Below are positions 3,487-55,141 of a DNA stretch of 64,000 nucleotides, piece after piece. Each line of letters starts with the position of its first letter. The first letter of the stretch is position 1. The stretch is taken from contig JACPBS010000004.1 of assembly GCA_016180195.1 (NCBI GenBank), positions 17,485-81,484 of the forward strand, given 5' to 3'. The notes beneath the pieces were generated by a model. That model did not search any database and was not told the origin of the DNA. It saw only the letters and a program-made list of their open reading frames with translations. The translations under genes and the position numbers were made by a program. This DNA is from Candidatus Woesearchaeota archaeon. Its GTDB lineage: Archaea; Nanobdellota; Nanobdellia; Woesearchaeales; UBA10216.

Positions 3487-4125
3487 TTAAGGTTGTTTAT
3501 TAATCTTTTGTAATTCCTGCTTTGTTCTTGTTGAGAGCCTGTGAGCCCGGTAAATTTGTTCAGGCATCTTATGGGGAGGCCTGAGGCTTTTCTTCACCAT
3601 TTCTATGCTCGCCTGGATGCTTACCCTGTGCCCTGGGCTGATATATACTGGCTTGCTGTATTCCCTTGTCCTTAATTCAAAGCCCCTGATCTCGTTGTTG
3701 AAGGTCACTTTTCCGTCAGGCTCAATCTCGCCGCAAAGCAGTGTTTTTGCCACGCCTATTGTTGGTATGTCAAGCATTATTCCGATGTGTGAAGCCAGGC
3801 CTATCCTTAGCGGATGGAGTATTCCATGCCCTTCAACTATCATCAGGTCAGGCTTGTTTTTCAGCTTGCTGTACGAGTCCTTTATCGCACTACCTTCGCG
3901 AAAAAACCTGTACCCCGGAATATAGGGGAAACTTGAATCCGTAACTGATACCTGCTCTTCTACCTTATTCATATCGCTGTCAAGCAGGACTATTGCTGAT
4001 ATTACTTTTTTCCCTATGAATGCCTGCTGAACACCGCCGATCAAATCAGCTTTTTTGAAATCATCCCTGGTTAGCACTCTTGTGGCCATTTCAATCTGTT
4101 CCCGGTTGTATTTCTGAAGGTTCAT
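3487..4125 (-). CDS. nfi: Endonuclease V
   Basis: 212 aa. Has the conserved PYIPGYRFFREG motif (YIPG..FRE) and HPLRIGLASHIG. Confidence 0.8.
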   Translation of the reverse strand: MNLQKYNREQIEMATRVLTRDDFKKADLIGGVQQAFIGKKVISAIVLLDSDMNKVEEQVSVTDSSFPYIPGYRFFREGSAIKDSYSKLKNKPDLMIVEGHGILHPLRIGLASHIGIMLDIPTIGVAKTLLCGEIEPDGKVTFNNEIRGFELRTREYSKPVYISPGHRVSIQASIEMVKKSLRPPHKMPEQIYRAHRLSTRTKQELQKINKQP

Positions 4126-4135
4126 TTTGAAAGCA

Positions 4136-4235
4136 TGGGCCCACCCGGAGTTTCGTGTGTATCAGTTTACCACAAGTTCGAACCGGGGACCCTCACCCTG
4201 TGAAGGTGATGTCATTGCCGCTAGACCATGGGCCC
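4136..4235 (-). tRNA. tRNA-Val(CAC) with a ~27-nt insertion (putative non-canonical intron) in the T-loop
   Basis: Reverse complement reads GGGCCCA-TG-GTCT-AGCGGCAA-TGAC-A-TCACC-TTCACAG-GGTGA-GGGTC-CCCGG-TTCGAAC-[27 nt]-CCGGG-TGGGCCC-A. It has a perfect 7-bp acceptor stem, a 5-bp anticodon stem and a 5-bp T stem. The anticodon loop is TTCACAG, giving anticodon CAC. The 27 extra nt lie between T-loop and 3' T-stem. Confidence 0.65.
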
Positions 4236-4316
4236 AATAAAAGAGCAGACAAGAAAAAGGCATATAAGAATTTTTTGGCAGAAATAATTAAATATTTCAC
4301 CGTTTCCTGTTTTATC

Positions 4317-4700
4317 ATGCCTTATTCGAGCATTCTTGTATGTATTAGCAACCCGCGGCATGGTGAGGAGATGGCCAGGCTCGCCCTCTCTGTTTCAGCC
4401 AGGGAAAGAAAAATCGTGTTCCTTCGTGTTTGCGGGCACATAGATGATGCTGTTGTCAGGGAATTCGACAGGGACCTGGCTTTTATGGATGGCGGGCCTG
4501 TGAGGTTTGAGAAGCGGATCGTTGAGTCCGACGATCCTGCGAGGACTATACTTGATGTCGCTGCAAGGGAGAATTCAGACCTTATCATTATCGGCTCAGC
4601 AGCCCATAAGGGGGTGATAAACAGGGTTGCGGGCAGCATTTCCTTCAAGTTGATGAAGGGTTCTAATGCTGCGGTGGTTGTGGTTAGGTCAAGAATCTAG
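4317..4700 (+). CDS. Universal stress protein (UspA family)
   Basis: ORF track starts at 4155 but that overlaps the tRNA. The internal ATG at 4317 gives MPYSSILVCISNP..., a typical Usp N-terminus, and a C-terminal ATP-binding motif IIIGSAAHKG...GS. Confidence 0.65.
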   Translation: MPYSSILVCISNPRHGEEMARLALSVSARERKIVFLRVCGHIDDAVVREFDRDLAFMDGGPVRFEKRIVESDDPARTILDVAARENSDLIIIGSAAHKGVINRVAGSISFKLMKGSNAAVVVVRSRI

Positions 4701-5842
4701 CGGCTGAACAATATGGCCTTCAATGTTTCCTTCCCAAGCAGAACTGTGCGTTCTTCATCTGTTTTGAACCCGTATTTTTCTGCGCTTTTCTTAAGCAGAT
4801 CCGTGTTCCGGGCCAGAAGCCCTATTTTTCCGTTCTTTGAGATTATGTATTGAGCTTGGTAGAACAACTCGTTGTTTAGCTTTTCAACGAATTTCTCTCC
4901 GATTCTTTTTGATGACTCTGGCGGGTTCGTTATTAACCTGTCTATTTCCCCTTCTGAAAATTTTGTATCGAGCCATTCAATATCGAGCCTGCTGAATGAG
5001 ATGCTCTTGTTTACACCGGCCAGCTTCGCATTTTTTTGCGCCGCGGTTATGCTGGGCATTGAAGAGTCAATGCCGATGATCCTTCGTTTCTGGGACTCGT
5101 TTTCCTGTGAGTCTATTTTTTCATAAAAAGTTTCCCAGTCCTCGTTATCAAGCGGCTTTAGGTGCTTGAATGCCAGGGCCTCCTTCCGGTAGAAGTTTAC
5201 TGGCTTTCCAGTCTGGTATAATGCTGCCTCTATTGGTATGATTCCTGATTTTGTGAACGGATCTATCAGGGAATTTGTTTTTTTGGTGCCTGAGAACCTG
5301 AGCATGCAATATGCCATAGTTCCTTTTAGGGCTGCAGGGTGTGCGAATATCCTGTAGTCCCTTTTGCTCAGGTCTATTCCGCTGAAGTCAATTCCGATAT
5401 AGCCTTTTTGGTTAAGTATATGTATGAAGAAAATGAGGTCCGGGCTTTCAAAGTTTACGTCCTTGTTTGTCTTCTCTTTTATCAGCCTGCTGGTTTCCGC
5501 GGAAAGGTCCTGGCTGTTGAAGGAATGCTCTCCTGTCCTTATGCAGGATACCTTGAAGGATGTCCCGTCTGAAATCCATTGCGAAAGGTCCGTTTCAGAA
5601 AGGATGCCTTTTATCGAAGAGACAGCAGAGCTCAGCTCATTGTTAACCGAAAATTGGCCTAGCAGGTGAAGCGACTTGATGGCTGACTGGGACTTGTACG
5701 TGAAAGCGCAGAGGTCTGTGAATTTCCTGTACTCGAATATGGAGACTGATTCATCTGTCGCCGGGCTTGATCCTATCATTTCCTCGACTTCTCTTGAAAG
5801 GATGTCTTCAAATCCCCTGTGCGTTATTGATATTCCTTTCAT
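4697..5842 (-). CDS. THUMP-domain RNA (guanine-N2/adenine-N6 type) methyltransferase, likely tRNA m2G methyltransferase
   Basis: 381 aa. N-terminal THUMP-like region, methylase core with motif I (GIDSSMPSI) and catalytic NPP motif (LITNPPESS). Confidence 0.6.
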
Positions 5843-8283
5843 GCCGGGTGGTTGTTCCCCTCGTTCGGGACTATTGCTGCCGCCACCACCTTGTCATTTT
5901 GATCGAGCTTCATTATCCTCACGCCCTGTGTGTTTCGGCCTATCTCGGAGATGTCTTTTGCAGTTATCCTTATGCCTATTCCCTTCTTGCTGATTATCAT
6001 AAGGTCGTCAGATTCGGATACAGATTTTATGACCGCAACCTTTCCATTTCGTTCATTTGTCTGTATGTTGATGACGCCAAGGCCGCCCCTGTTTATGAGC
6101 CTGTACTCGTCAACCTTTGTCCTTTTGCCATATCCATTCTCGGTTATGGTCAGCAGGCTTTTCTCAGCGACTACCATTCCGATTACTTCATCGCCCGATT
6201 TCAGCCTTATTCCCCTCACACCCTGTGATGATCTTCCTGTCTCCCTTACATCGGACTCGTTGAACCTTGCCGCAAGGCCGTTCTTTGTGGCTATTATTAC
6301 TTCCCTGTTCATCTCTGTAAGCTCTACGCCAACAAGCTTGTCGTTTTCATCGAGCGTGATTGATATTATCCCTCCTTTTCTTGGCTTCGAGTATTCTGAA
6401 AGGCTTGTTTTCTTGATAACCCCGTTTTTGGTTGACATTAGAAGCCCGTATTTTCCATCAAACTCCTTTACCGGGATGTATGCTGTTATCTTCTCGTCCT
6501 CAAGGTCCAGCAGGTTGACAATGGCCTTGCCCATTGCAAGCCTTGATGCCTCAGGTATCTTGTAAACCTTCAGCCAGTGGGCTATGCCCTTGTCTGTGAA
6601 GAAGAGTATGTAGCTGTGGGTATTTGCGTAGAATATGCTTTCTACGAAGTCCTGCTCGCCTATTTCCGCGGCTATGATTCCTTTCCCGCCCCTTTTTTGC
6701 TGCCTGTATGCGTCAAGTGACAGCCTTTTAATGTATCCATTGTGGGTTATTGTTACTACAGCATCCTGGGATGGGATAAGGTCCTCAATCTCAAAATCCT
6801 CGACGCCTTCACCTATCTCTGTCCGTCTTGGATCCGAATATTTCTGCTTGAGCTCTGTTGTTTCGTTTTCTATTATCTCGAGTATTCTTTTATCATCTGA
6901 AAGTATCTCCTTCAGGTGGTTTATGAGTTTTGTAAGCTCTTCGAATTCGAGCTTGACTTTTTCCTGCTCAAGCGAAGCGAGTCTTTGGAGCTTTATTTCA
7001 AGTATTGCACTTGCCTGCTTATCAGAAATGCTGTATTGGGAGATGAGCCCTGTCTTCGCAGCAGCTGCATCCCTTGATTTTCTTATCAGGATGATGACAT
7101 TTTCGATGTTCTTTAGCGCGATAATTATTCCTTGAAGTATATGTGCCTTCTCCTCTGCTTTTTTCAATTCGAAGGATGTTCTTCTCCTTACAACATGTTG
7201 CCTGTGCCTTATGAAGCTCTGGATAACTTCCTTCAGGTCAAGGGTCCTGGGCTCATTGTTCTGGAGCGCGATCATCATTATTCCGAATGTTGTCTCCAGC
7301 TTTGTGTGCGTGAACAGCTGGTTCATTACAACTTCCTGGTTTGCATCCTTTTTCAGCTCTATGACTATCCTCAGGCCTTCCTTGTCGCTTTCATCCCTGA
7401 GATCAGATATTCCCTGGATTTTTTTCTCCCGTATCAGGTCTGCCATTTCCTCGATGAGCTGCGATTTGTTGACCTGGAAAGGTATCTCGTTGACTATCAT
7501 TCTTTGCCGATCCTTGTTTTTTTCAACAGATATCTTTGCCCTTATTGTTATTAGGCCCCTGCCTGTCTTGTAAGCCTGCCTGATTCCTGCATTTCCGCAT
7601 ATTATGCCTCCGGTGGGGAAGTCAGGCCCTTTAATGTGATGCATCAGCTCATCCATGCATATCTCCGGGTTTTTGATAGTTGCAATTACGGCATCGGCAA
7701 CCTCCTTGAAATTGTGGGGAGGGATGTTCGTTGCCATTCCCACCGCGATCCCTGAGCTTCCGTTTATCAGCAGGTTAGGTATCTTGGAGGGGAGCACAAG
7801 AGGTTCTTCCAGGCTTGCATCGAAATTCGGGACAAAATCAACTGTCTCTTTTTCAATATCTATTAGTAGCTCCTCCGCTATCCTGGAAAGCCTTGCTTCA
7901 GTATACCTTATTGCGGCTGCTGAGTCGCCGTCTATGCTTCCCCAGTTACCTTGCCCGTCTATGAGGGGGTACCTTAATGAGAAATCCTGTGCCATTCGCA
8001 CCATTGTATCGTACACTGCTGATTCTGAGTGAGGATGGTACTTCCCAAGGCAGTCACCTATTATCCTTGCGCTTTTCCTGTACTGCTTGTTGTGCAACAG
8101 GCCGAGGTCATGGTACATTGCATAAAGCACGCGCCTTTGGACAGGTTTCAGGCCGTCCCTTAAATCTGGAAGTGCTCTTGCAACAAGGACAGACATCGCA
8201 TAGTCCAGGTATGATGTCTTCATTTCCTGGGAGATCTCCCTGTTCAGTATGCTGACCGCTGCTTTAGTAGTTTCAGAATTCAT
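5839..8283 (-). CDS. gyrA: DNA gyrase subunit A
   Basis: 814 aa. Has the [29 protein letters not shown] signature and C-terminal beta-pinwheel repeats. No gyrB adjacent in window. Confidence 0.9.
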
Positions 8284-12819: not shown

Positions 12820-12847
12820 CGCAACAACTAACCAACAGCTATATAAT

Positions 12848-12892
12848 TGTTTTGTTTAGGACATTTTTGTCTATTTTGTCCTGTTTCAGGTA
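12848..12892 (+). repeat. 45-bp direct repeat, copy 1 (upstream of PIN/UPF0175 cassette), contains inverted repeat AGGACA-N13-TGTCCT
   Basis: attgttttgtttaggacatttttgtctattttgtcctgtttcagg. Its 42/45-identical partner is at 13819..13863. Confidence 0.85.
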
Positions 12893-12981
12893 ATCGGTTC
12901 CTCCAATGGAACAGAATGGAACCTTTGGTACGCCAACGGATGAAAATAAGGTTTCAGGTACTTTGGAGGATCTTGTAGTGT

Positions 12982-13539
12982 ATGCACAAAAAATTGTTTA
13001 AGAAACATTTTTATATTACAAAAGTACATCATTGTATTACATTGAAAAAGGCATTGGTTTTTGACACATCAACACTCATATTGCTGGCAAAAGCAACTAT
13101 TTTAAGGAATTTTGCAGGCTTCAATAGAATCACAATAACAAAAGAAATTATTTCGGAGGTCTTTTCAAAAGAAGGAGCAGAGGATGCAAAGATCATAAAA
13201 AAGCTTATTGCGGAAGGCCGGATAATTGAGGACATTGCCCCGGATACGGATTTAGGAATTGATTTCATGTTAGGGGAAGGTGAAGCCAAAGCCCTGAGCT
13301 TTGCTTTGAAAAGAAAAATCATATTGGCAACTGATGATTTGCGGGCAATTAGGGCATGCAAAGTGCTTGATGTAAGGTTTATTACCGCAATTCATTGCCT
13401 TATATCACTTTACAACAACAAAGCAATCGATCAGAGATTGGCTCTTGAGAAGTTGAAGACACTTGAAAAATACGGCAGGTATTCGGCTTCGATAATAAGG
13501 GACGCAAGAAGGATAATCGAAGGTGGAAAAAATGGCTGA
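12982..13539 (+). CDS. PIN-like nuclease domain protein (DUF3368-type), toxin-like partner of UPF0175
   Basis: 185 aa from ATG 12982. Alternative TTG at 13042 gives MKKALVFDTSTLILLAK, a typical PIN N-terminus. Conserved acidic residues D(27)/E/D(ATDD). Confidence 0.55.
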   Translation: MHKKLFKKHFYITKVHHCITLKKALVFDTSTLILLAKATILRNFAGFNRITITKEIISEVFSKEGAEDAKIIKKLIAEGRIIEDIAPDTDLGIDFMLGEGEAKALSFALKRKIILATDDLRAIRACKVLDVRFITAIHCLISLYNNKAIDQRLALEKLKTLEKYGRYSASIIRDARRIIEGGKNG

Positions 13540-13816
13540 TGTGGTAAGTTTCAGGTTTAAAAGTCACGAGCTTGAGCACATAAATAAGCTATCGGCAGCA
13601 AGAAAAACAGATAAGACGACTGCTGCAAGGGAGCTTATAGAATACGGCTGGATATACTATGTTATTCAGCAATACAAGGAAGGGAAGCTCTCATTGGAAA
13701 GAACGGCAAAGGAGCTGCATATTTCAGTCGGAGAGCTGATTGATTTGCTTGCAGATTTCGGGATAAAATCGCCAATTGCTTTTGAGGATTATCTTGAAGG
13801 TCTGAAGAACATTTGA
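13523..13816 (+). CDS. UPF0175 family antitoxin-like protein
   Basis: 97 aa. C-terminal KLSLERTAKELHISVGELIDLLADFGI matches the UPF0175 signature SLGKAAELAG.S...F...L...GI. Overlaps PIN gene by 17 nt. Confidence 0.6.
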   Translation: MEKMADVVSFRFKSHELEHINKLSAARKTDKTTAARELIEYGWIYYVIQQYKEGKLSLERTAKELHISVGELIDLLADFGIKSPIAFEDYLEGLKNI

Positions 13817-13818
13817 TT

Positions 13819-13863
13819 ATTGTTCTATTTAGGACATTTTTGTCTATTTTGTCCTGTTTCGGG
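13819..13863 (+). repeat. 45-bp direct repeat, copy 2 (2 nt after UPF0175 stop; promoter region of next gene)
   Basis: attgttctatttaggacatttttgtctattttgtcctgtttcggg. Confidence 0.85.
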
Positions 13864-17745: not shown

Positions 17746-17840
17746 GCTGTTATTTCTTTTAATGAAACTTTTTTTAGGTCCTGGCAAAAATTATCGATTT
17801 TTTCAGGATTGAAATTCCTGGAATAAAAACTTCAATAAAA

Positions 17841-18057
17841 ATGTTGTGTCAAGTACCCCGGGCTAAAGCCCAGGGCGTGTTCTTGAGCACACAAATCAAG
17901 CTTTGCTTGATTGTGCCCATTTGAGCTATGCTCAAATTGGGTCTCAGAAATTGTCAAGCTTTGCTTGATTGTGCCCATTTGAGCTATGCTCAAATTGGGT
18001 CTCAGAAATTGCTCGTCCTTACTGCGCACTAAAGTGCCACAGATTACGTCGAGAGCA
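17841..18057 (+). repeat. Hairpin-rich intergenic repeat, family A copy 1 (contains a perfect 58-bp tandem duplication, 17896-17953 / 17954-18011)
   Basis: About 150 bp near-identical to 40241..40405. Built from consecutive palindromes: GGGCTaaAGCCC, AATCAAGCtttGCTTGATT, CCCATTTGAGCtatGCTCAAATTGGG, GCACTaaAGTGC. Confidence 0.85.
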
Positions 18058-18113
18058 ATTTCTGACATTTCAATTCTGAATTTTCCCATCAATTCCACAA
18101 CAGTATTAAGGAT

Positions 18114-40240: not shown

Positions 40241-40405
40241 AAATCTTGCTATGTGTCAAGAACCCGGGCTAAAGCCCAGGGCGTGTTCTTGAGCACACAA
40301 ATCAAGCTTTGCTTGATTGTGCCCATTTGAGCTATGCTCAGATTGGGTCTCAGAAATTGCTCGTCCTTACTGCGCACTAAAGTGCCACAGATTGCGTCGA
40401 GAGCA
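40241..40405 (+). repeat. Hairpin-rich intergenic repeat, family A copy 2
   Basis: Near-identical to 17841-18057 but with a single copy of the 58-bp unit. Lies in the purF upstream region. Confidence 0.85.
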
Positions 40406-43188: not shown

Positions 43189-44462
43189 GAAGGGATGAGC
43201 TTTTTGGTCCTCTTAACGATAAGTCTGCAAAGATCATGCTGTTGGGCTCTGGTGAGCTTGGGAAGGAGATCATCATCGAGGCAATGAGGCTGGGAATTGA
43301 GACTATTGCCGTTGACCGGTATGAAAACGCTCCGGGTCAGCAGGTTGCCCACAGGGCTTATACTGGAAACATGAAGGATCCCTTGTTTCTAAAGGGGATT
43401 GTTGAAAAGGAGAAGCCTGATGCAATTATTCCTGAGATTGAGGCGATTAATCTTGACGTGCTTTTTGAGCTGGAGAAATGTGGATTTAACGTTATTCCAA
43501 ACGCAGCTGCAACGCACGCAGCGATGCAGAGGGAAAGGATAAGGGAGCTTATCTCGAAAAAAGCAGGTGTTCCGACTTCGAAATACCTTTACGCAGACAC
43601 ACTTGATGAGTTGAAGGATGCCTGCGAAAAGTTAGGCTATCCGTGCTGGGTCAAGGCCATCATGTCTTCTTCCGGCCAGGGGTCGATGTTTGTTGAAAGT
43701 GAAGCTGATATAAAGAAGGCTTTTGATAATTCAAGGGCCAGGGCAAGGGGCTCGGGTGAAAGGATGATTGTTGAGGAACATATTCCTTTTGACATAGAGG
43801 TTACTGAGCTTGCAGTGAGGCATTATGATGGGAACGGGCACATCGTAACATCTTTTCCCAAGCCGGTTGGCCATTACCAGATTGATGGGGATTATCATTC
43901 AAGCTGGCAATGTGCCGAGGTTAGCGAGAGCGTTGAGAGGGAGATCTACAGGACTGCCGAGAAGATAACTTCTGCTTTGGGTGGTGTGGGCCTTTTCGGG
44001 TGTGAGCTTTTTGTGAAGGATGGCAAGGTTTATGGCAACGAGTGCTCTCCACGGCCTCATGACACGGGCATGGTTACCCTTGCAACCCATCAGGCAACTT
44101 TGTCAGAGTGTGGATTGCACGTGAGGGCTGTTTGCGGGCTTCCTGTTCCCAGCGTGAAGCAATCGGGATTTAATGTTATTTTGCCTGTGAAGAACGGGGC
44201 GTCTCATGTTATTTTGTCTCCGTGCGAGGGCAGCCATCCTGTGATGAGGAACCTTTGGCAGGCTTTGGGGAATGATGTGTCTTTTTTTGCTTTTGGCAAG
44301 CCTGATGCTCATTTTGGCAGGAGGATGGGGCTTGTTGTTGCTTTGGATGATGATGTGGGGAAGGCGAAGGTGAAGGCTGAGAGGGCTGCCCATATGATTG
44401 AAATGAGGACTTCGCAGCAGGGCTGGGCTGGGCAGCATGACAGGAAGTTCCACCTGCTATGA
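43185..44462 (+). CDS. purT: Formate-dependent phosphoribosylglycinamide formyltransferase (PurT, ATP-grasp)
   Basis: 425 aa. N-terminus KIMLLGSGELGKEIIIEAMRLGIETIAVDRYENAPGQQVAHRAY closely follows the PurT consensus. Confidence 0.8.
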   Translation: MRRDELFGPLNDKSAKIMLLGSGELGKEIIIEAMRLGIETIAVDRYENAPGQQVAHRAYTGNMKDPLFLKGIVEKEKPDAIIPEIEAINLDVLFELEKCGFNVIPNAAATHAAMQRERIRELISKKAGVPTSKYLYADTLDELKDACEKLGYPCWVKAIMSSSGQGSMFVESEADIKKAFDNSRARARGSGERMIVEEHIPFDIEVTELAVRHYDGNGHIVTSFPKPVGHYQIDGDYHSSWQCAEVSESVEREIYRTAEKITSALGGVGLFGCELFVKDGKVYGNECSPRPHDTGMVTLATHQATLSECGLHVRAVCGLPVPSVKQSGFNVILPVKNGASHVILSPCEGSHPVMRNLWQALGNDVSFFAFGKPDAHFGRRMGLVVALDDDVGKAKVKAERAAHMIEMRTSQQGWAGQHDRKFHLL

Positions 44463-53075: not shown

Positions 53076-53348
53076 AGCTTTCGGAAAAGTTATAGAAAAA
53101 AATATAAATAATTATTAATTCCCTGTATAAAATGTACTTGACGGCCTGATTATAACGTAAGATATTACGGTCCTTGGGGGGTTCCTACTCGTGGAAGAAA
53201 GGGAGGGCCTAGCCTTGCTGAAAGGATAGTTTCCAATCCCGGATACGCGATAGGAGAGCATTTATCCACTTTGGAAGGCCAGAGTTCTTGTTGTGGCGGC
53301 GGAAAAGCATATAATACATTGGAGAATGCTATTGAAATTGCTAGAAGG

Positions 53349-53412
53349 GCTCCTTTCAAGGATTATAGAAATCGCAGTAACTAATTTTATTGCTCAAGTG
53401 GGTTTAATGCCC
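53349..53412 (+). repeat. 64-bp direct repeat, copy 1 (9 nt beyond HEPN stop)
   Basis: gctcctttcaaggattatagaaatcgcagtaactaattttattgctcaagtgggtttaatgccc. 63/64 identical to 54584-54647. Confidence 0.9.
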
Positions 53413-53421
53413 TGTCATAAT

Positions 53422-53928
53422 CTAATGATTTGATTGCATCAGCTCTTCTGCCTTATTGATGAAGTCCAAAACCTTGTTTTCGTATTCTTCTATTGTTTCA
53501 TTGTTGAATTTTATCGTTGTTGCATAGCTTGCATCATGCCTGTCATCTTTAAGCTGTGTGTAGAGCTCAGCATCTTCCTTGCTTATGGAAAGCTCGTTTA
53601 GCAGCTTTGCCTCTTCTCTTGTTATCGCATACTCTTTGATGAGTAGGAGTATTGTCGCATAGTGGTTCTTTGATGTGTACTTTTTTCTTGTTATCAAAGC
53701 CAATGCAGAATGGTACAGTGAGTAGTACAATGTTACGACAAGCCAGTCATTGAACTTGTGCTGCTCTTTGTTGAGCTTATAGAACTCCATGTTATGCCTT
53801 GCTTTTTTCAGGTGTGATTGGGCTAGCTCAGGGTTGCTTCCTATTTTCCTTATGTGCTTTTTTTCCGTGAAAAAGACAATTTCCTGCTCAAGGAATTTCT
53901 TGTCGGAGAACAGCTTATTGATATCCAT
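53422..53928 (-). CDS. HEPN-domain protein (toxin-like partner of MNT)
   Basis: Likely start at the internal ATG at 53928 (MDINKLFSDKK...). The ORF track extends to 54003. HEPN-type R-x4-H motif context (KKARHNMEFY). Confidence 0.6.
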   Translation of the reverse strand: MDINKLFSDKKFLEQEIVFFTEKKHIRKIGSNPELAQSHLKKARHNMEFYKLNKEQHKFNDWLVVTLYYSLYHSALALITRKKYTSKNHYATILLLIKEYAITREEAKLLNELSISKEDAELYTQLKDDRHDASYATTIKFNNETIEEYENKVLDFINKAEELMQSNH

Positions 53929-54490
53929 CCAATTGTACCTCGTAAAAGCTTTGTTCTTTATGGATTGGAAATCCTGTCTTTCTTGCCTGAATGATGATGT
54001 CATCTTTATTATCCTTGAATTGGGATATTGTTGCGTTGAAAAGTGATAAAGGATGCTTCGAGGTTATTTCGGCCTCTTTCTTATTTATCGACAAGTCTGG
54101 CTTTTTTCCTGATACGACAAGAATGTCAATGTCGCTTTCATTTGTTTCCTCTTTTCTTGAAGCAGAGCCGAAGAGGATTATGGTGAAGATGTTTTCAGGG
54201 ATATTCTTCAGGAAGTTTTTGAGCGGTACTTTTACGTTTGGGCTCAGGCTGTTGAATTTTCGCATTGCTATCTCGGAGAATTTGAGGGCAAAGAGTTTTT
54301 TGTCCTTTATCTTATAGAAGGTGTTTGCCTTGGTCTTTTCTTCATCCAGGACGTTTGCTTTGGTGAGCTTTTCCAGGGCGTTTTGCAGGGAGCTATGGGA
54401 GAGTATTGTGTGCTCCTTGATCTGGTTGTAATAGAGCTTAGGCTGCTTTAGCTCAAAAAATGCCTCGTATATCTTCTCTTCTGCGTTCAT
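53915..54490 (-). CDS. MNT-type nucleotidyltransferase with N-terminal winged-helix domain
   Basis: 191 aa. Nucleotidyltransferase motifs ILFGSASRKEETNESDIDILVV. Confidence 0.75.
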   Translation of the reverse strand: MNAEEKIYEAFFELKQPKLYYNQIKEHTILSHSSLQNALEKLTKANVLDEEKTKANTFYKIKDKKLFALKFSEIAMRKFNSLSPNVKVPLKNFLKNIPENIFTIILFGSASRKEETNESDIDILVVSGKKPDLSINKKEAEITSKHPLSLFNATISQFKDNKDDIIIQARKTGFPIHKEQSFYEVQLDGYQ

Positions 54491-54583
54491 TTTGTGATTG
54501 TAAGCGATTGATATTTAAATGCTTTACCAATTTTTGGTATAAGTTTACCATATTTTGGTATTGATTCATGTTTTGCCTGAAGT

Positions 54584-54647
54584 GCTCCTTTCAAGGATTA
54601 TAGAAATCGCAGTAACTAATTTTATTGCTCAAATGGGTTTAATGCCC
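54584..54647 (+). repeat. 64-bp direct repeat, copy 2 (93 nt upstream of MNT start; overlaps the last codons of ORF 54629..55141)
   Basis: gctcctttcaaggattatagaaatcgcagtaactaattttattgctcaaatgggtttaatgccc. Confidence 0.9.
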
Positions 54648-55141
54648 CTGAGTTCAAGCAAGGTGAGTGTGCTTACCCCTGTTGCAAGGACATTTAATAA
54701 TACTAGTTCATATGCTTGTTTAGTCAAATTCGATTCAGAATCCTGCAGTCGGTAATTCGCCATTTGCAGCATATTCAATGTGTCTAAAGGGGTGAATGAT
54801 TCGTTTGTTTCATGTTCTGCAAGCTTTGAATCTGCCATGTAAAGCATGTTTTCAAGACCATCTCTGCCAGTATCCGGCATTTTTGTTAATGCTTTGTATA
54901 TATTTCCCCTTGCTTTTTCTATTGCTGCGATCGAGATGCTTTTTCCCGTGTAATATTCTAATAGCTCAGACCTAGCATGATCAATCTCGATCCGGGTTTG
55001 CTTTCCACGGTCTAGTTGTTGTGCTATGTAATCAACAGGCGGTTTGAAGAATGCCAGCGAAGCATATATAACTCCTGCAGTGCCTAATATTGTTGCTGTT
55101 GTCGTTAAAGCTTTTCTTGCATCCATAATAATCACTTTCAC
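54629..55141 (-). CDS. Hypothetical membrane-anchored protein
   Basis: 170 aa. N-terminal TM segment (TTTATILGTAGVIYASLAFF). No known motif. Confidence 0.4.
   Translation of the reverse strand: MKVIIMDARKALTTTATILGTAGVIYASLAFFKPPVDYIAQQLDRGKQTRIEIDHARSELLEYYTGKSISIAAIEKARGNIYKALTKMPDTGRDGLENMLYMADSKLAEHETNESFTPLDTLNMLQMANYRLQDSESNLTKQAYELVLLNVLATGVSTLTLLELRGIKPI

Follow-up and report, generated by a model that had tools for sequence, protein, structure and literature searches.

Direct repeats carrying the ends of resident genes flank a toxin-antitoxin cassette in a Woesearchaeota archaeon: a possible case of homology-anchored capture

Introduction

How does a small toxin-antitoxin (TA) module come to lie between two resident genes of an archaeal chromosome when it brings no integrase or transposase with it? 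The question is raised by a locus in a 64,000-nt stretch of contig JACPBS010000004.1 (hereafter the window, to which all coordinates without a contig name refer); judging from the names that NCBI gives to identical proteins, the host is a Candidatus Woesearchaeota archaeon. At this locus an insert of 1171 bases (53413 to 54583) contains only two genes, which encode a minimal nucleotidyltransferase (MNT) and a HEPN protein and form a module of about 1.2 kb, and on each side of the insert stands a direct repeat that holds the 3' ends of the two convergent neighbouring genes. This layout, a TA cassette between repeats derived from its target, recurs in two TA families. After analyzing the locus and its relatives, we consider the best reading, in which we place intermediate confidence, to be a recombinase-free, homology-anchored capture of the cassette.

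Results

Both repeat copies carry the ends of both neighbouring genes

Ungapped alignment places the direct repeats at 53338-53412 and 54573-54647, with a start-to-start spacing of 1235 nt; 71 of the 75 positions are identical, and the four mismatches fall at 53342, 53343, 53348 and 53398. The core of the repeat (53349-53412 and 54584-54647) is identical at 63 of 64 positions, as the initial annotation of this DNA had claimed, and its longest exact stretch measures 49 nt (53349-53397). Past the core, weaker similarity continues at one edge (8 of 11 bases). The repeat, 64-75 nt long and thus longer than 30 bp, has only two copies in the window: searched with up to three mismatches, the 49-mer gave two matches there and none in 100 shuffles. 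The same 49-mer had no match in the JGI metagenome collection.

The resident gene on one side is an ORFan of 170 aa on the minus strand (54629..55141; the NCBI call is 165 aa, starting from 55126), and its 3' end lies within repeat copy 2. On the other side, a small plus-strand gene (53142..53386; uncalled in the contigs examined) has its 3' end within copy 1. In the uninterrupted site, the stop codons of these convergent genes are 7 nt apart. Copy 1 contains the small gene's last 12 codons with their stop, then the 7-nt spacer, and finally a repeated version of the 170-aa gene's terminal codons and stop. In copy 2, the six terminal codons and the stop are those actually used by the 170-aa gene, and the last codons of the small gene are present as an orphan version that follows an in-frame stop. 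Each convergent neighbour retains an intact 3' end, the repeat holding both gene ends. The single mismatch in the core is non-synonymous for the 170-aa gene (I/T). It had been proposed that copy 2 encodes the end of the 170-aa gene and that the cassette was inserted at the 3' end of that gene; the coding assignment is correct and an insertion is supported, but the repeat spans the ends of both convergent neighbours and not of that gene alone.

Independent Logan assemblies of several sequencing runs contain every junction, in each case with 100% identity. The cassette with its repeat ends is covered by contigs L001, L002, L160 and L161, the passage from the 170-aa gene into the repeat by L003-L005 and L007, and the passage from purQ into the repeat by L008 and L009. 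Therefore, the structure is not an artefact of a single assembly.

An empty site in a metagenome assembly

Contig L006 (run SRR12113433) equals the window minus exactly 1235 bp, base for base. It leads from the 170-aa gene through one repeat copy to 53348..53206, and the crossover may lie anywhere within the 49-nt exact stretch. Contigs from other runs end within the repeat, as expected at a branch of an assembly graph. SRR12113433 is absent from the named runs that carry the cassette, three runs sharing L001 being unnamed. The empty site that had been predicted for this locus was thereby found, with the caveat that the Logan assembly was made at k = 31, below the length of the 49-nt exact repeat, and a chimera is conceivable. 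We regard a filled/empty polymorphism at the locus as probable. The 170-aa gene has no orthologue in GTDB genomes, and among 5.8 billion proteins it matched only itself; therefore, no orthologous empty site can be found in another species.

The insert encodes a putative autoregulated toxin-antitoxin pair

Read along the minus strand, the locus consists of repeat copy 2, about 10 nt that the copies do not share, two operator-like sites, a TATA-like box, the MNT gene, the HEPN gene, a 9-nt trailer and repeat copy 1. Open reading frames (ORFs) and Pfam matches agree with the earlier description of a minus-strand MNT-HEPN pair between the repeats. The MNT gene (54490..53915) encodes a putative antitoxin and autoregulator of 191 aa, in which an N-terminal winged-helix domain is fused to a minimal nucleotidyltransferase with the motif GSASRKEETNESDIDILV. 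The nucleotidyltransferase part scores 34.6 bits against PF18765 (Polbeta; cut-off 26.9) and 32.5 bits against PF01909 (NTP_transf_2; cut-off 21), and its GS...DxD motif is present and reads FGSASRKEETNESDIDILV. Matches of the N-terminus to winged helix-turn-helix (wHTH) domains are weak, and the score against the NCBIfam MntA model NF047752 is 27.5 bits, below the 60-bit cut-off. More than 500 homologues of MNT were found at about 60-80% identity, and every taxon name attached to the listed matches is that of a DPANN archaeon.

The putative toxin is a UPF0332-type HEPN protein of 168 aa (53928..53422, minus strand), whose gene overlaps that of MNT by 14 nt. Its ORF extends from 54003 to 53422, and 53928 is the real start, given the family-conserved start at ORF position M46 and an NCBI call of 168 aa. 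The protein scores 21.6 bits against Pfam PF05168, just short of the cut-off of 22, matches the UPF0332 protein AF0298 (PDB 2hsb) weakly (E = 0.17) and has no NCBIfam match. In its family, an R-x4-Y motif (DRHDASY) is kept in 45-46 of 47 members, along with SKNH.

Two operator-like sites, ATACCAAAATATGGTAAA (54561..54544) and ATACCAAAAATTGGTAAA (54540..54523), lie on the minus strand in the leader; each is a TACCA-N5-TGGTA dyad, and their starts are 21 nt apart. Next comes a TATA-like box, TTTAAATA (54519..54512), which precedes the MNT start codon by 22-29 nt. The position of this putative promoter element implies a leaderless or near-leaderless MNT transcript. The tandem operator-like repeat that the initial annotation had pointed out in the leader is a family trait: 48 of 58 family loci, compared with 6 of 300 control windows, contain two 16-mers in tandem at a spacing of 21 nt, some 70 nt before the MNT start. 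Subgroups of the family differ in operator sequence, and the TATA-like box is kept beside the operators in the family loci. A scan for sigma-70 promoters and terminators was uninformative, the host being an archaeon. By analogy with known modules, the wHTH domain of MNT probably binds both operators and represses its own promoter, and the nucleotidyltransferase domain probably neutralises the HEPN toxin, as in the HepT/MntA type VII system.

The GC content of the cassette is 38.7%, compared with a window mean of 44.8%, and lies in the lowest 0.6% of equal-sized windows; cassette homologues were found in many different genomic contexts. In its composition the cassette appears foreign, and we read 53413-54583 as a horizontally acquired, self-contained toxin-antitoxin cassette.

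Repeat-flanked cassettes recur in two TA families

For 64 MNT-HEPN loci from species-representative genomes, we compared the 700 nt upstream of MNT with the region downstream of HEPN. Eight of the 43 loci with full flanks carry a flanking direct repeat that scores above all 150 cross-locus controls, and none of 30 shifted controls does; L053 and the window locus are two further repeat-flanked cases. The repeats of these relatives are 21-131 nt long, 82-97% identical and 1145-1410 nt apart, and their sequence is specific to each locus. Typically, one end of a resident gene, 5' or 3', makes up the repeat. That of L059 comprises the final 34 codons of a gene for 232 aa whose C-terminal region is winged-helix-like, that of L053 is the start of another gene, and that of L035 is the beginning of a gene similar to the PD-(D/E)XK nuclease gene serving as anchor in L032 (see below). 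Homology between cassettes spans the region from the first operator to the HEPN stop or just past it. As a separate observation, many contigs with MNT homologues are 1.0-1.4 kb long, about one cassette, which could fit breaks at the repeats, but the collection consists mostly of contigs of about 1 kb.

The second family is that of PIN/UPF0175 cassettes, of which 80 metagenome loci were collected: 14 of the 40 testable ones have flanking repeats above all 150 controls, 29 to about 190 nt long and at 80-97% identity. A member of this family lies in the window itself (12843..13863, plus strand), where PIN (DUF3368; 13043..13539) and UPF0175 (13532..13816) stand between repeats of 48 nt (12843-12890 and 13816-13863; 92% identical). 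The search for other repeat-flanked TA pairs, which had been suggested as a check of mobility, was strongly positive in both families. The PIN-cassette repeats lie within a promoter region of about 110 nt common to two divergent resident genes, and each neighbour keeps a copy. They are unrelated to the repeats of the MNT-HEPN cassette, and the two cassettes have the same GC content. All six independent contigs with the flanking ACT-domain gene end within the repeat and give no evidence either way on an empty site. The PIN leader measures 91 nt to an ATG at 12982 and 152 nt to a TTG at 13043, the start favoured by the family alignment and the NCBI call, and the trailer measures about 0 nt. For the MNT-HEPN cassette, a 93-nt leader and a 9-nt trailer are correct with respect to the 64-nt core; however, the identical spacing that had been reported for the PIN cassette could not be reproduced.

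Repeat copies in some relatives have diverged like functional genes

A repeat duplicated in situ would leave a copy that decays neutrally, with differences spread across all codon positions. This logic could be applied informatively at three loci, two of them individually significant, the other pairs being mostly intergenic or without a clear resident frame. Counted at first, second and third codon positions, the repeat copies of L059 differ at 3/0/12 sites, those of L156 at 0/3/8 and those of L035 at 7/6/12. Of all 51 differences together, 32 fall at the third position (p = 1.6e-5); L035 alone is not significant. In L059, 12 codon changes are synonymous and one is non-synonymous, and the shared ending R-L-stop is written AGA-CTA-TGA in one copy and AGG-TTG-TGA in the other. 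The copies in L032 also differ at synonymous sites, and one of them encodes a serine as AGT where the others have TCA. Therefore, both copies in these relatives evolved in functional genes until recently, and this pattern suggests that one of them probably came with the cassette from another lineage. The earlier statement that the insertion duplicated 64 bp is right about the repeat, but its verb may be wrong, since the copies at related loci are diverged orthologous sequences. At the window, the fuzzy repeat edge mildly favours an imported copy.

Cassette arrays and travelling gene fragments

A self-comparison of all loci revealed several in which one repeat occurs three or four times at a spacing of about 1 kb. 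In L032, also from Woesearchaeota (3853-7461), each of three different wHTH-MNT/HEPN cassettes is followed by 55-75 nt from the beginning of a PD-(D/E)XK nuclease gene; of the four repeat copies, just the final one runs on into the nuclease gene, and an AbiEi/AbiEii pair precedes the array. In L103 (757-3998), MntA/HepT, DUF4143 and PIN/UPF0175 modules are separated by a DNA methylase gene's 5' end, present in four copies, of which the gene-adjacent one has a 1-nt frameshift. Arrays of about 1-kb cassettes of the L103 type are also present in L104, L106, L065 and L120.

Pieces of a former neighbour also trail single cassettes. In L052 (5057 onward), a full-length hsdR gene (1055 aa) lies directly downstream of an MNT-HEPN cassette, and in L016, L030, L037, L041 and L042 only the first 26-57 codons of hsdR follow the HEPN gene. 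At the 3' edge of the window cassette (53413..53433, minus strand), which comprises the 9-nt trailer and the last HEPN codons, another frame reads IKSLDYD and matches the hsdR 5' fragment. About 21 nt of this fragment, fused to the HEPN 3' end, are thus retained; the match to L016 was counted by eye, and a local alignment with L016 missed the hsdR remnant because of a 50-nt gap. Since hsdR fragments trail the cassettes, the cassettes travel with pieces of their former neighbours.

Genomic neighbourhood and other repeats of the window

The genes around the insertion are purL, purQ, purE, purC, purB and hypotheticals. No integrase or transposase gene lies inside the insert, and none is on record among Pfam matches of the neighbouring genes. 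No tRNA gene was found in the 64-kb window, and no intI integrase gene among the genes within about 9 kb, although not all window genes are annotated. The small gene that ends in copy 1 belongs to a real family of small proteins: its homologues, 73-125 aa long and about 47% identical, have a conserved block RRGPSLAERIV...TL.GQ in common. Its copy in the window has no in-frame ATG, GTG or TTG upstream of this block. The GC-rich segment 53160-53310 had been considered as a non-coding RNA with the repeat as its 3' end; ARAGORN and Rfam searches returned nothing at gathering or E-value thresholds, and the proposal was discarded, as the region is the small protein gene.

Two other repeats were seen in the window. 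A hairpin-rich intergenic element of 104 nt occurs at 17840-18060 and 40255-40405, 22 kb apart and at 98% identity, and could be a small RNA or resemble a miniature inverted-repeat transposable element; its first locus contains an exact 58-nt tandem duplication (17896-18011), and the element has no Rfam match. Additionally, 44154-44219 is a tandem pair of 33-nt units with 73% identity.

Discussion

Overall, we provide a putative mechanism for the capture of the MNT-HEPN cassette. Without a recombinase, the cassette would enter on DNA that also bears a close relative's version of the target sequence. A circular molecule of cassette plus repeat might integrate by a single crossover, as a Campbell-type 'pop-in', or a homologous crossover on one side might be combined with an illegitimate join on the other, which is homology-facilitated illegitimate recombination. 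Both routes would leave target sequence on each side of the cassette. Recombination between the repeats would delete the cassette precisely; should the pair be addictive, selection would act against cells without it, and therefore the repeat-flanked insertions that persist would be TA modules.

Several points weigh against this mechanism. Homologous recombination would work inefficiently on stretches of 49-100 nt, which in some relatives are 84-90% identical, and to our knowledge the recombination machinery of DPANN archaea is unstudied. The first arrival of a cassette at a new locus is left unexplained. The codon-position signal comes from three pooled loci, two of which are significant singly, and the window locus, with one mismatch in the core, has no power to distinguish an imported copy from an in-situ duplication. 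Only about 19-35% of the family loci have repeats. The closest MNT homologue among the matches listed has 80% protein identity, and there is no known donor sequence. The canonical R-x4-6-H motif of HEPN toxins is absent from the HEPN partner. Lastly, if cassette branches were clipped in a low-coverage sample, a chimeric de Bruijn path across the 49-nt exact repeat could have produced L006.

A rather unlikely but serious competitor is a long target duplication made in situ, in which breaks staggered by about 64-75 nt, or copying repair, would allow a cassette without homology to be ligated and the gaps to be filled. Such an event would account for a core identical at 63 of 64 positions and for the single copy in the empty site, and the locus-variable repeat length is also known from restriction-modification systems. 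However, we know of no enzyme that makes staggered cuts of 20-190 nt. The fuzzy edge of the window repeat, with 8 of 11 bases matching past the 49-nt perfect stretch, is unlike a clean fill-in, and the synonymous differences in relatives are far above the expectation of neutral decay. In favour of a duplication in situ, the published cases in Table 3 of PMC2853133 have repeats closer to each other than to the empty site of another strain. In site-specific integration, the repeats would be attL and attR of a small non-autonomous element whose integrase is encoded elsewhere; direct repeats of 40-70 nt that bound an insert and overlap the 3' end of a gene are typical of archaeal and bacterial integrative elements, a feature also discussed in PMC2853133. 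We nevertheless find this improbable, as no integrase is present in the insert or on record among its neighbours and the window has no tRNA gene. Moreover, there is no common core; the repeat sequence changes from locus to locus, its length lies between 21 and about 190 nt, the repeats of the two window cassettes are unrelated, and the copies of some relatives are only 82-88% identical.

The two remaining alternatives are the least probable. If the repeats were attC-like sites of an integron-type gene cassette, possibly in an array without an integrase, the arrays of cassettes of about 1 kb at related loci would find a ready parallel, TA pairs being common integron cassettes, and a preprint reports integrons in Archaea (bioRxiv 10.1101/2022.02.06.479319). 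However, shuffled sequences fold as well as the single-stranded repeat (z = 0.22 and 0.59), no RYYYAAC or GTTRRRY core sites were seen by eye, and the repeat is coding sequence of two resident genes, just as the array repeats are 5' ends of the resident nuclease or methylase gene; an integron origin is thus highly improbable. We attach equally slight weight to the view that no insertion took place and that the pair arose by chance or in assembly, or belongs to a dispersed intergenic element. Further copies were sought within the 64-kb window only, which leaves this view some room, but that window holds just two copies, the shuffles gave no match, and the junctions recur in independent assemblies. 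In addition, the copies are not identical, their length fits no assembler k-mer, and the layout recurs around homologous cassettes in many genomes.

Homology-anchored capture, as we propose it, shares features with several known systems. 'Insertion with long target duplication' reportedly goes back to a paper of 2000 in Gene, 259:99. The term describes restriction-modification systems without a mobility gene that lie between unique direct repeats of about 30 to more than 400 bp, present once in the empty strain (PMC2853133, PMC3874152); the cases are from bacteria only, no archaeal case having survived the screen, and the mechanism is not established (Furuta, Abe and Kobayashi 2010, PMC2853133). 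The window locus is similar in being a small addiction-type module without a mobility gene, whose repeats exceed 30 bp, are single in the probable empty allele, vary in length between events and often overlap the 3' end of a neighbour. Nevertheless, the cargo here is a TA pair instead of a restriction-modification system, and the host is a DPANN archaeon. Additionally, the copies in relatives are diverged orthologous sequences that build arrays, which points to homology-anchored import. In the literature that we searched, 'long target duplication' and toxin-antitoxin were mentioned together only where restriction-modification work was cited.

Homology-facilitated illegitimate recombination has been proposed for the effector-immunity arrays of the type VI secretion system (T6SS) in Vibrio cholerae and for orphans of Rhs and contact-dependent inhibition (CDI) systems (Kirchberger et al. 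2017, PMC5361080). There, a module carries part of a resident gene as an anchor, leaves a fragment behind and builds arrays of mixed lineage, and L032 and L103 resemble such arrays. In contrast, the anchor in those systems is always the conserved part of a toxin-delivery gene, whereas here it may be any neighbour (a nuclease, a methylase, a Csa3-like regulator or convergent gene ends), and the window holds a single cassette. As for the cargo, the overlapping genes and the typical order and sizes, nucleotidyltransferase then HEPN, resemble those described for HepT/MntA type VII of Shewanella (SO_3165/3166; PMC7641770, PMC4621449). Compared with that description, the window MNT has an extra N-terminal wHTH and a low MntA-model score, and the HEPN protein is UPF0332-like with R-x4-Y; the pair thus lacks two defining traits, the R-x4-6-H motif and a sufficient MntA score.

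One route of the proposed capture also has a counterpart at the bench. In archaeal genetics, Campbell-type 'pop-in/pop-out' involves a single crossover of circular DNA that duplicates the segment of homology, and its reversal restores the empty site. An exactly restored empty site is what L006 displays. Unlike in those experiments, no more than 49-75 nt of homology is available here, the process would be natural, and a circular intermediate is hypothetical.

More tentatively, and with somewhat less than even confidence, we propose that recombinase-free cassette capture may be general in DPANN archaea and in the other uncultivated organisms behind the metagenome contigs. Addiction modules would use a piece of an adjoining gene as a homology arm into the orthologous site and leave the resident copy intact, and successive events would build integron-like arrays in which fragments of one host gene separate the TA cassettes; the window locus would then represent a fresh, still polymorphic case.

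The movement of TA modules between chromosomes without a transposon, phage or plasmid is a long-standing puzzle, and this locus offers a case that can be tested with existing read data, as the probable filled/empty polymorphism lies in public groundwater metagenomes. The comparable signature of restriction-modification systems, long target duplication, has been without a mechanism since 2000 and without an archaeal example. We suggest that compact genomes may tolerate such insertions because the repeat gives each packed neighbour its own gene end or promoter. If the arrays seen in relatives are general, homology-anchored capture would represent a second, integrase-free way to stack defence and addiction cassettes.

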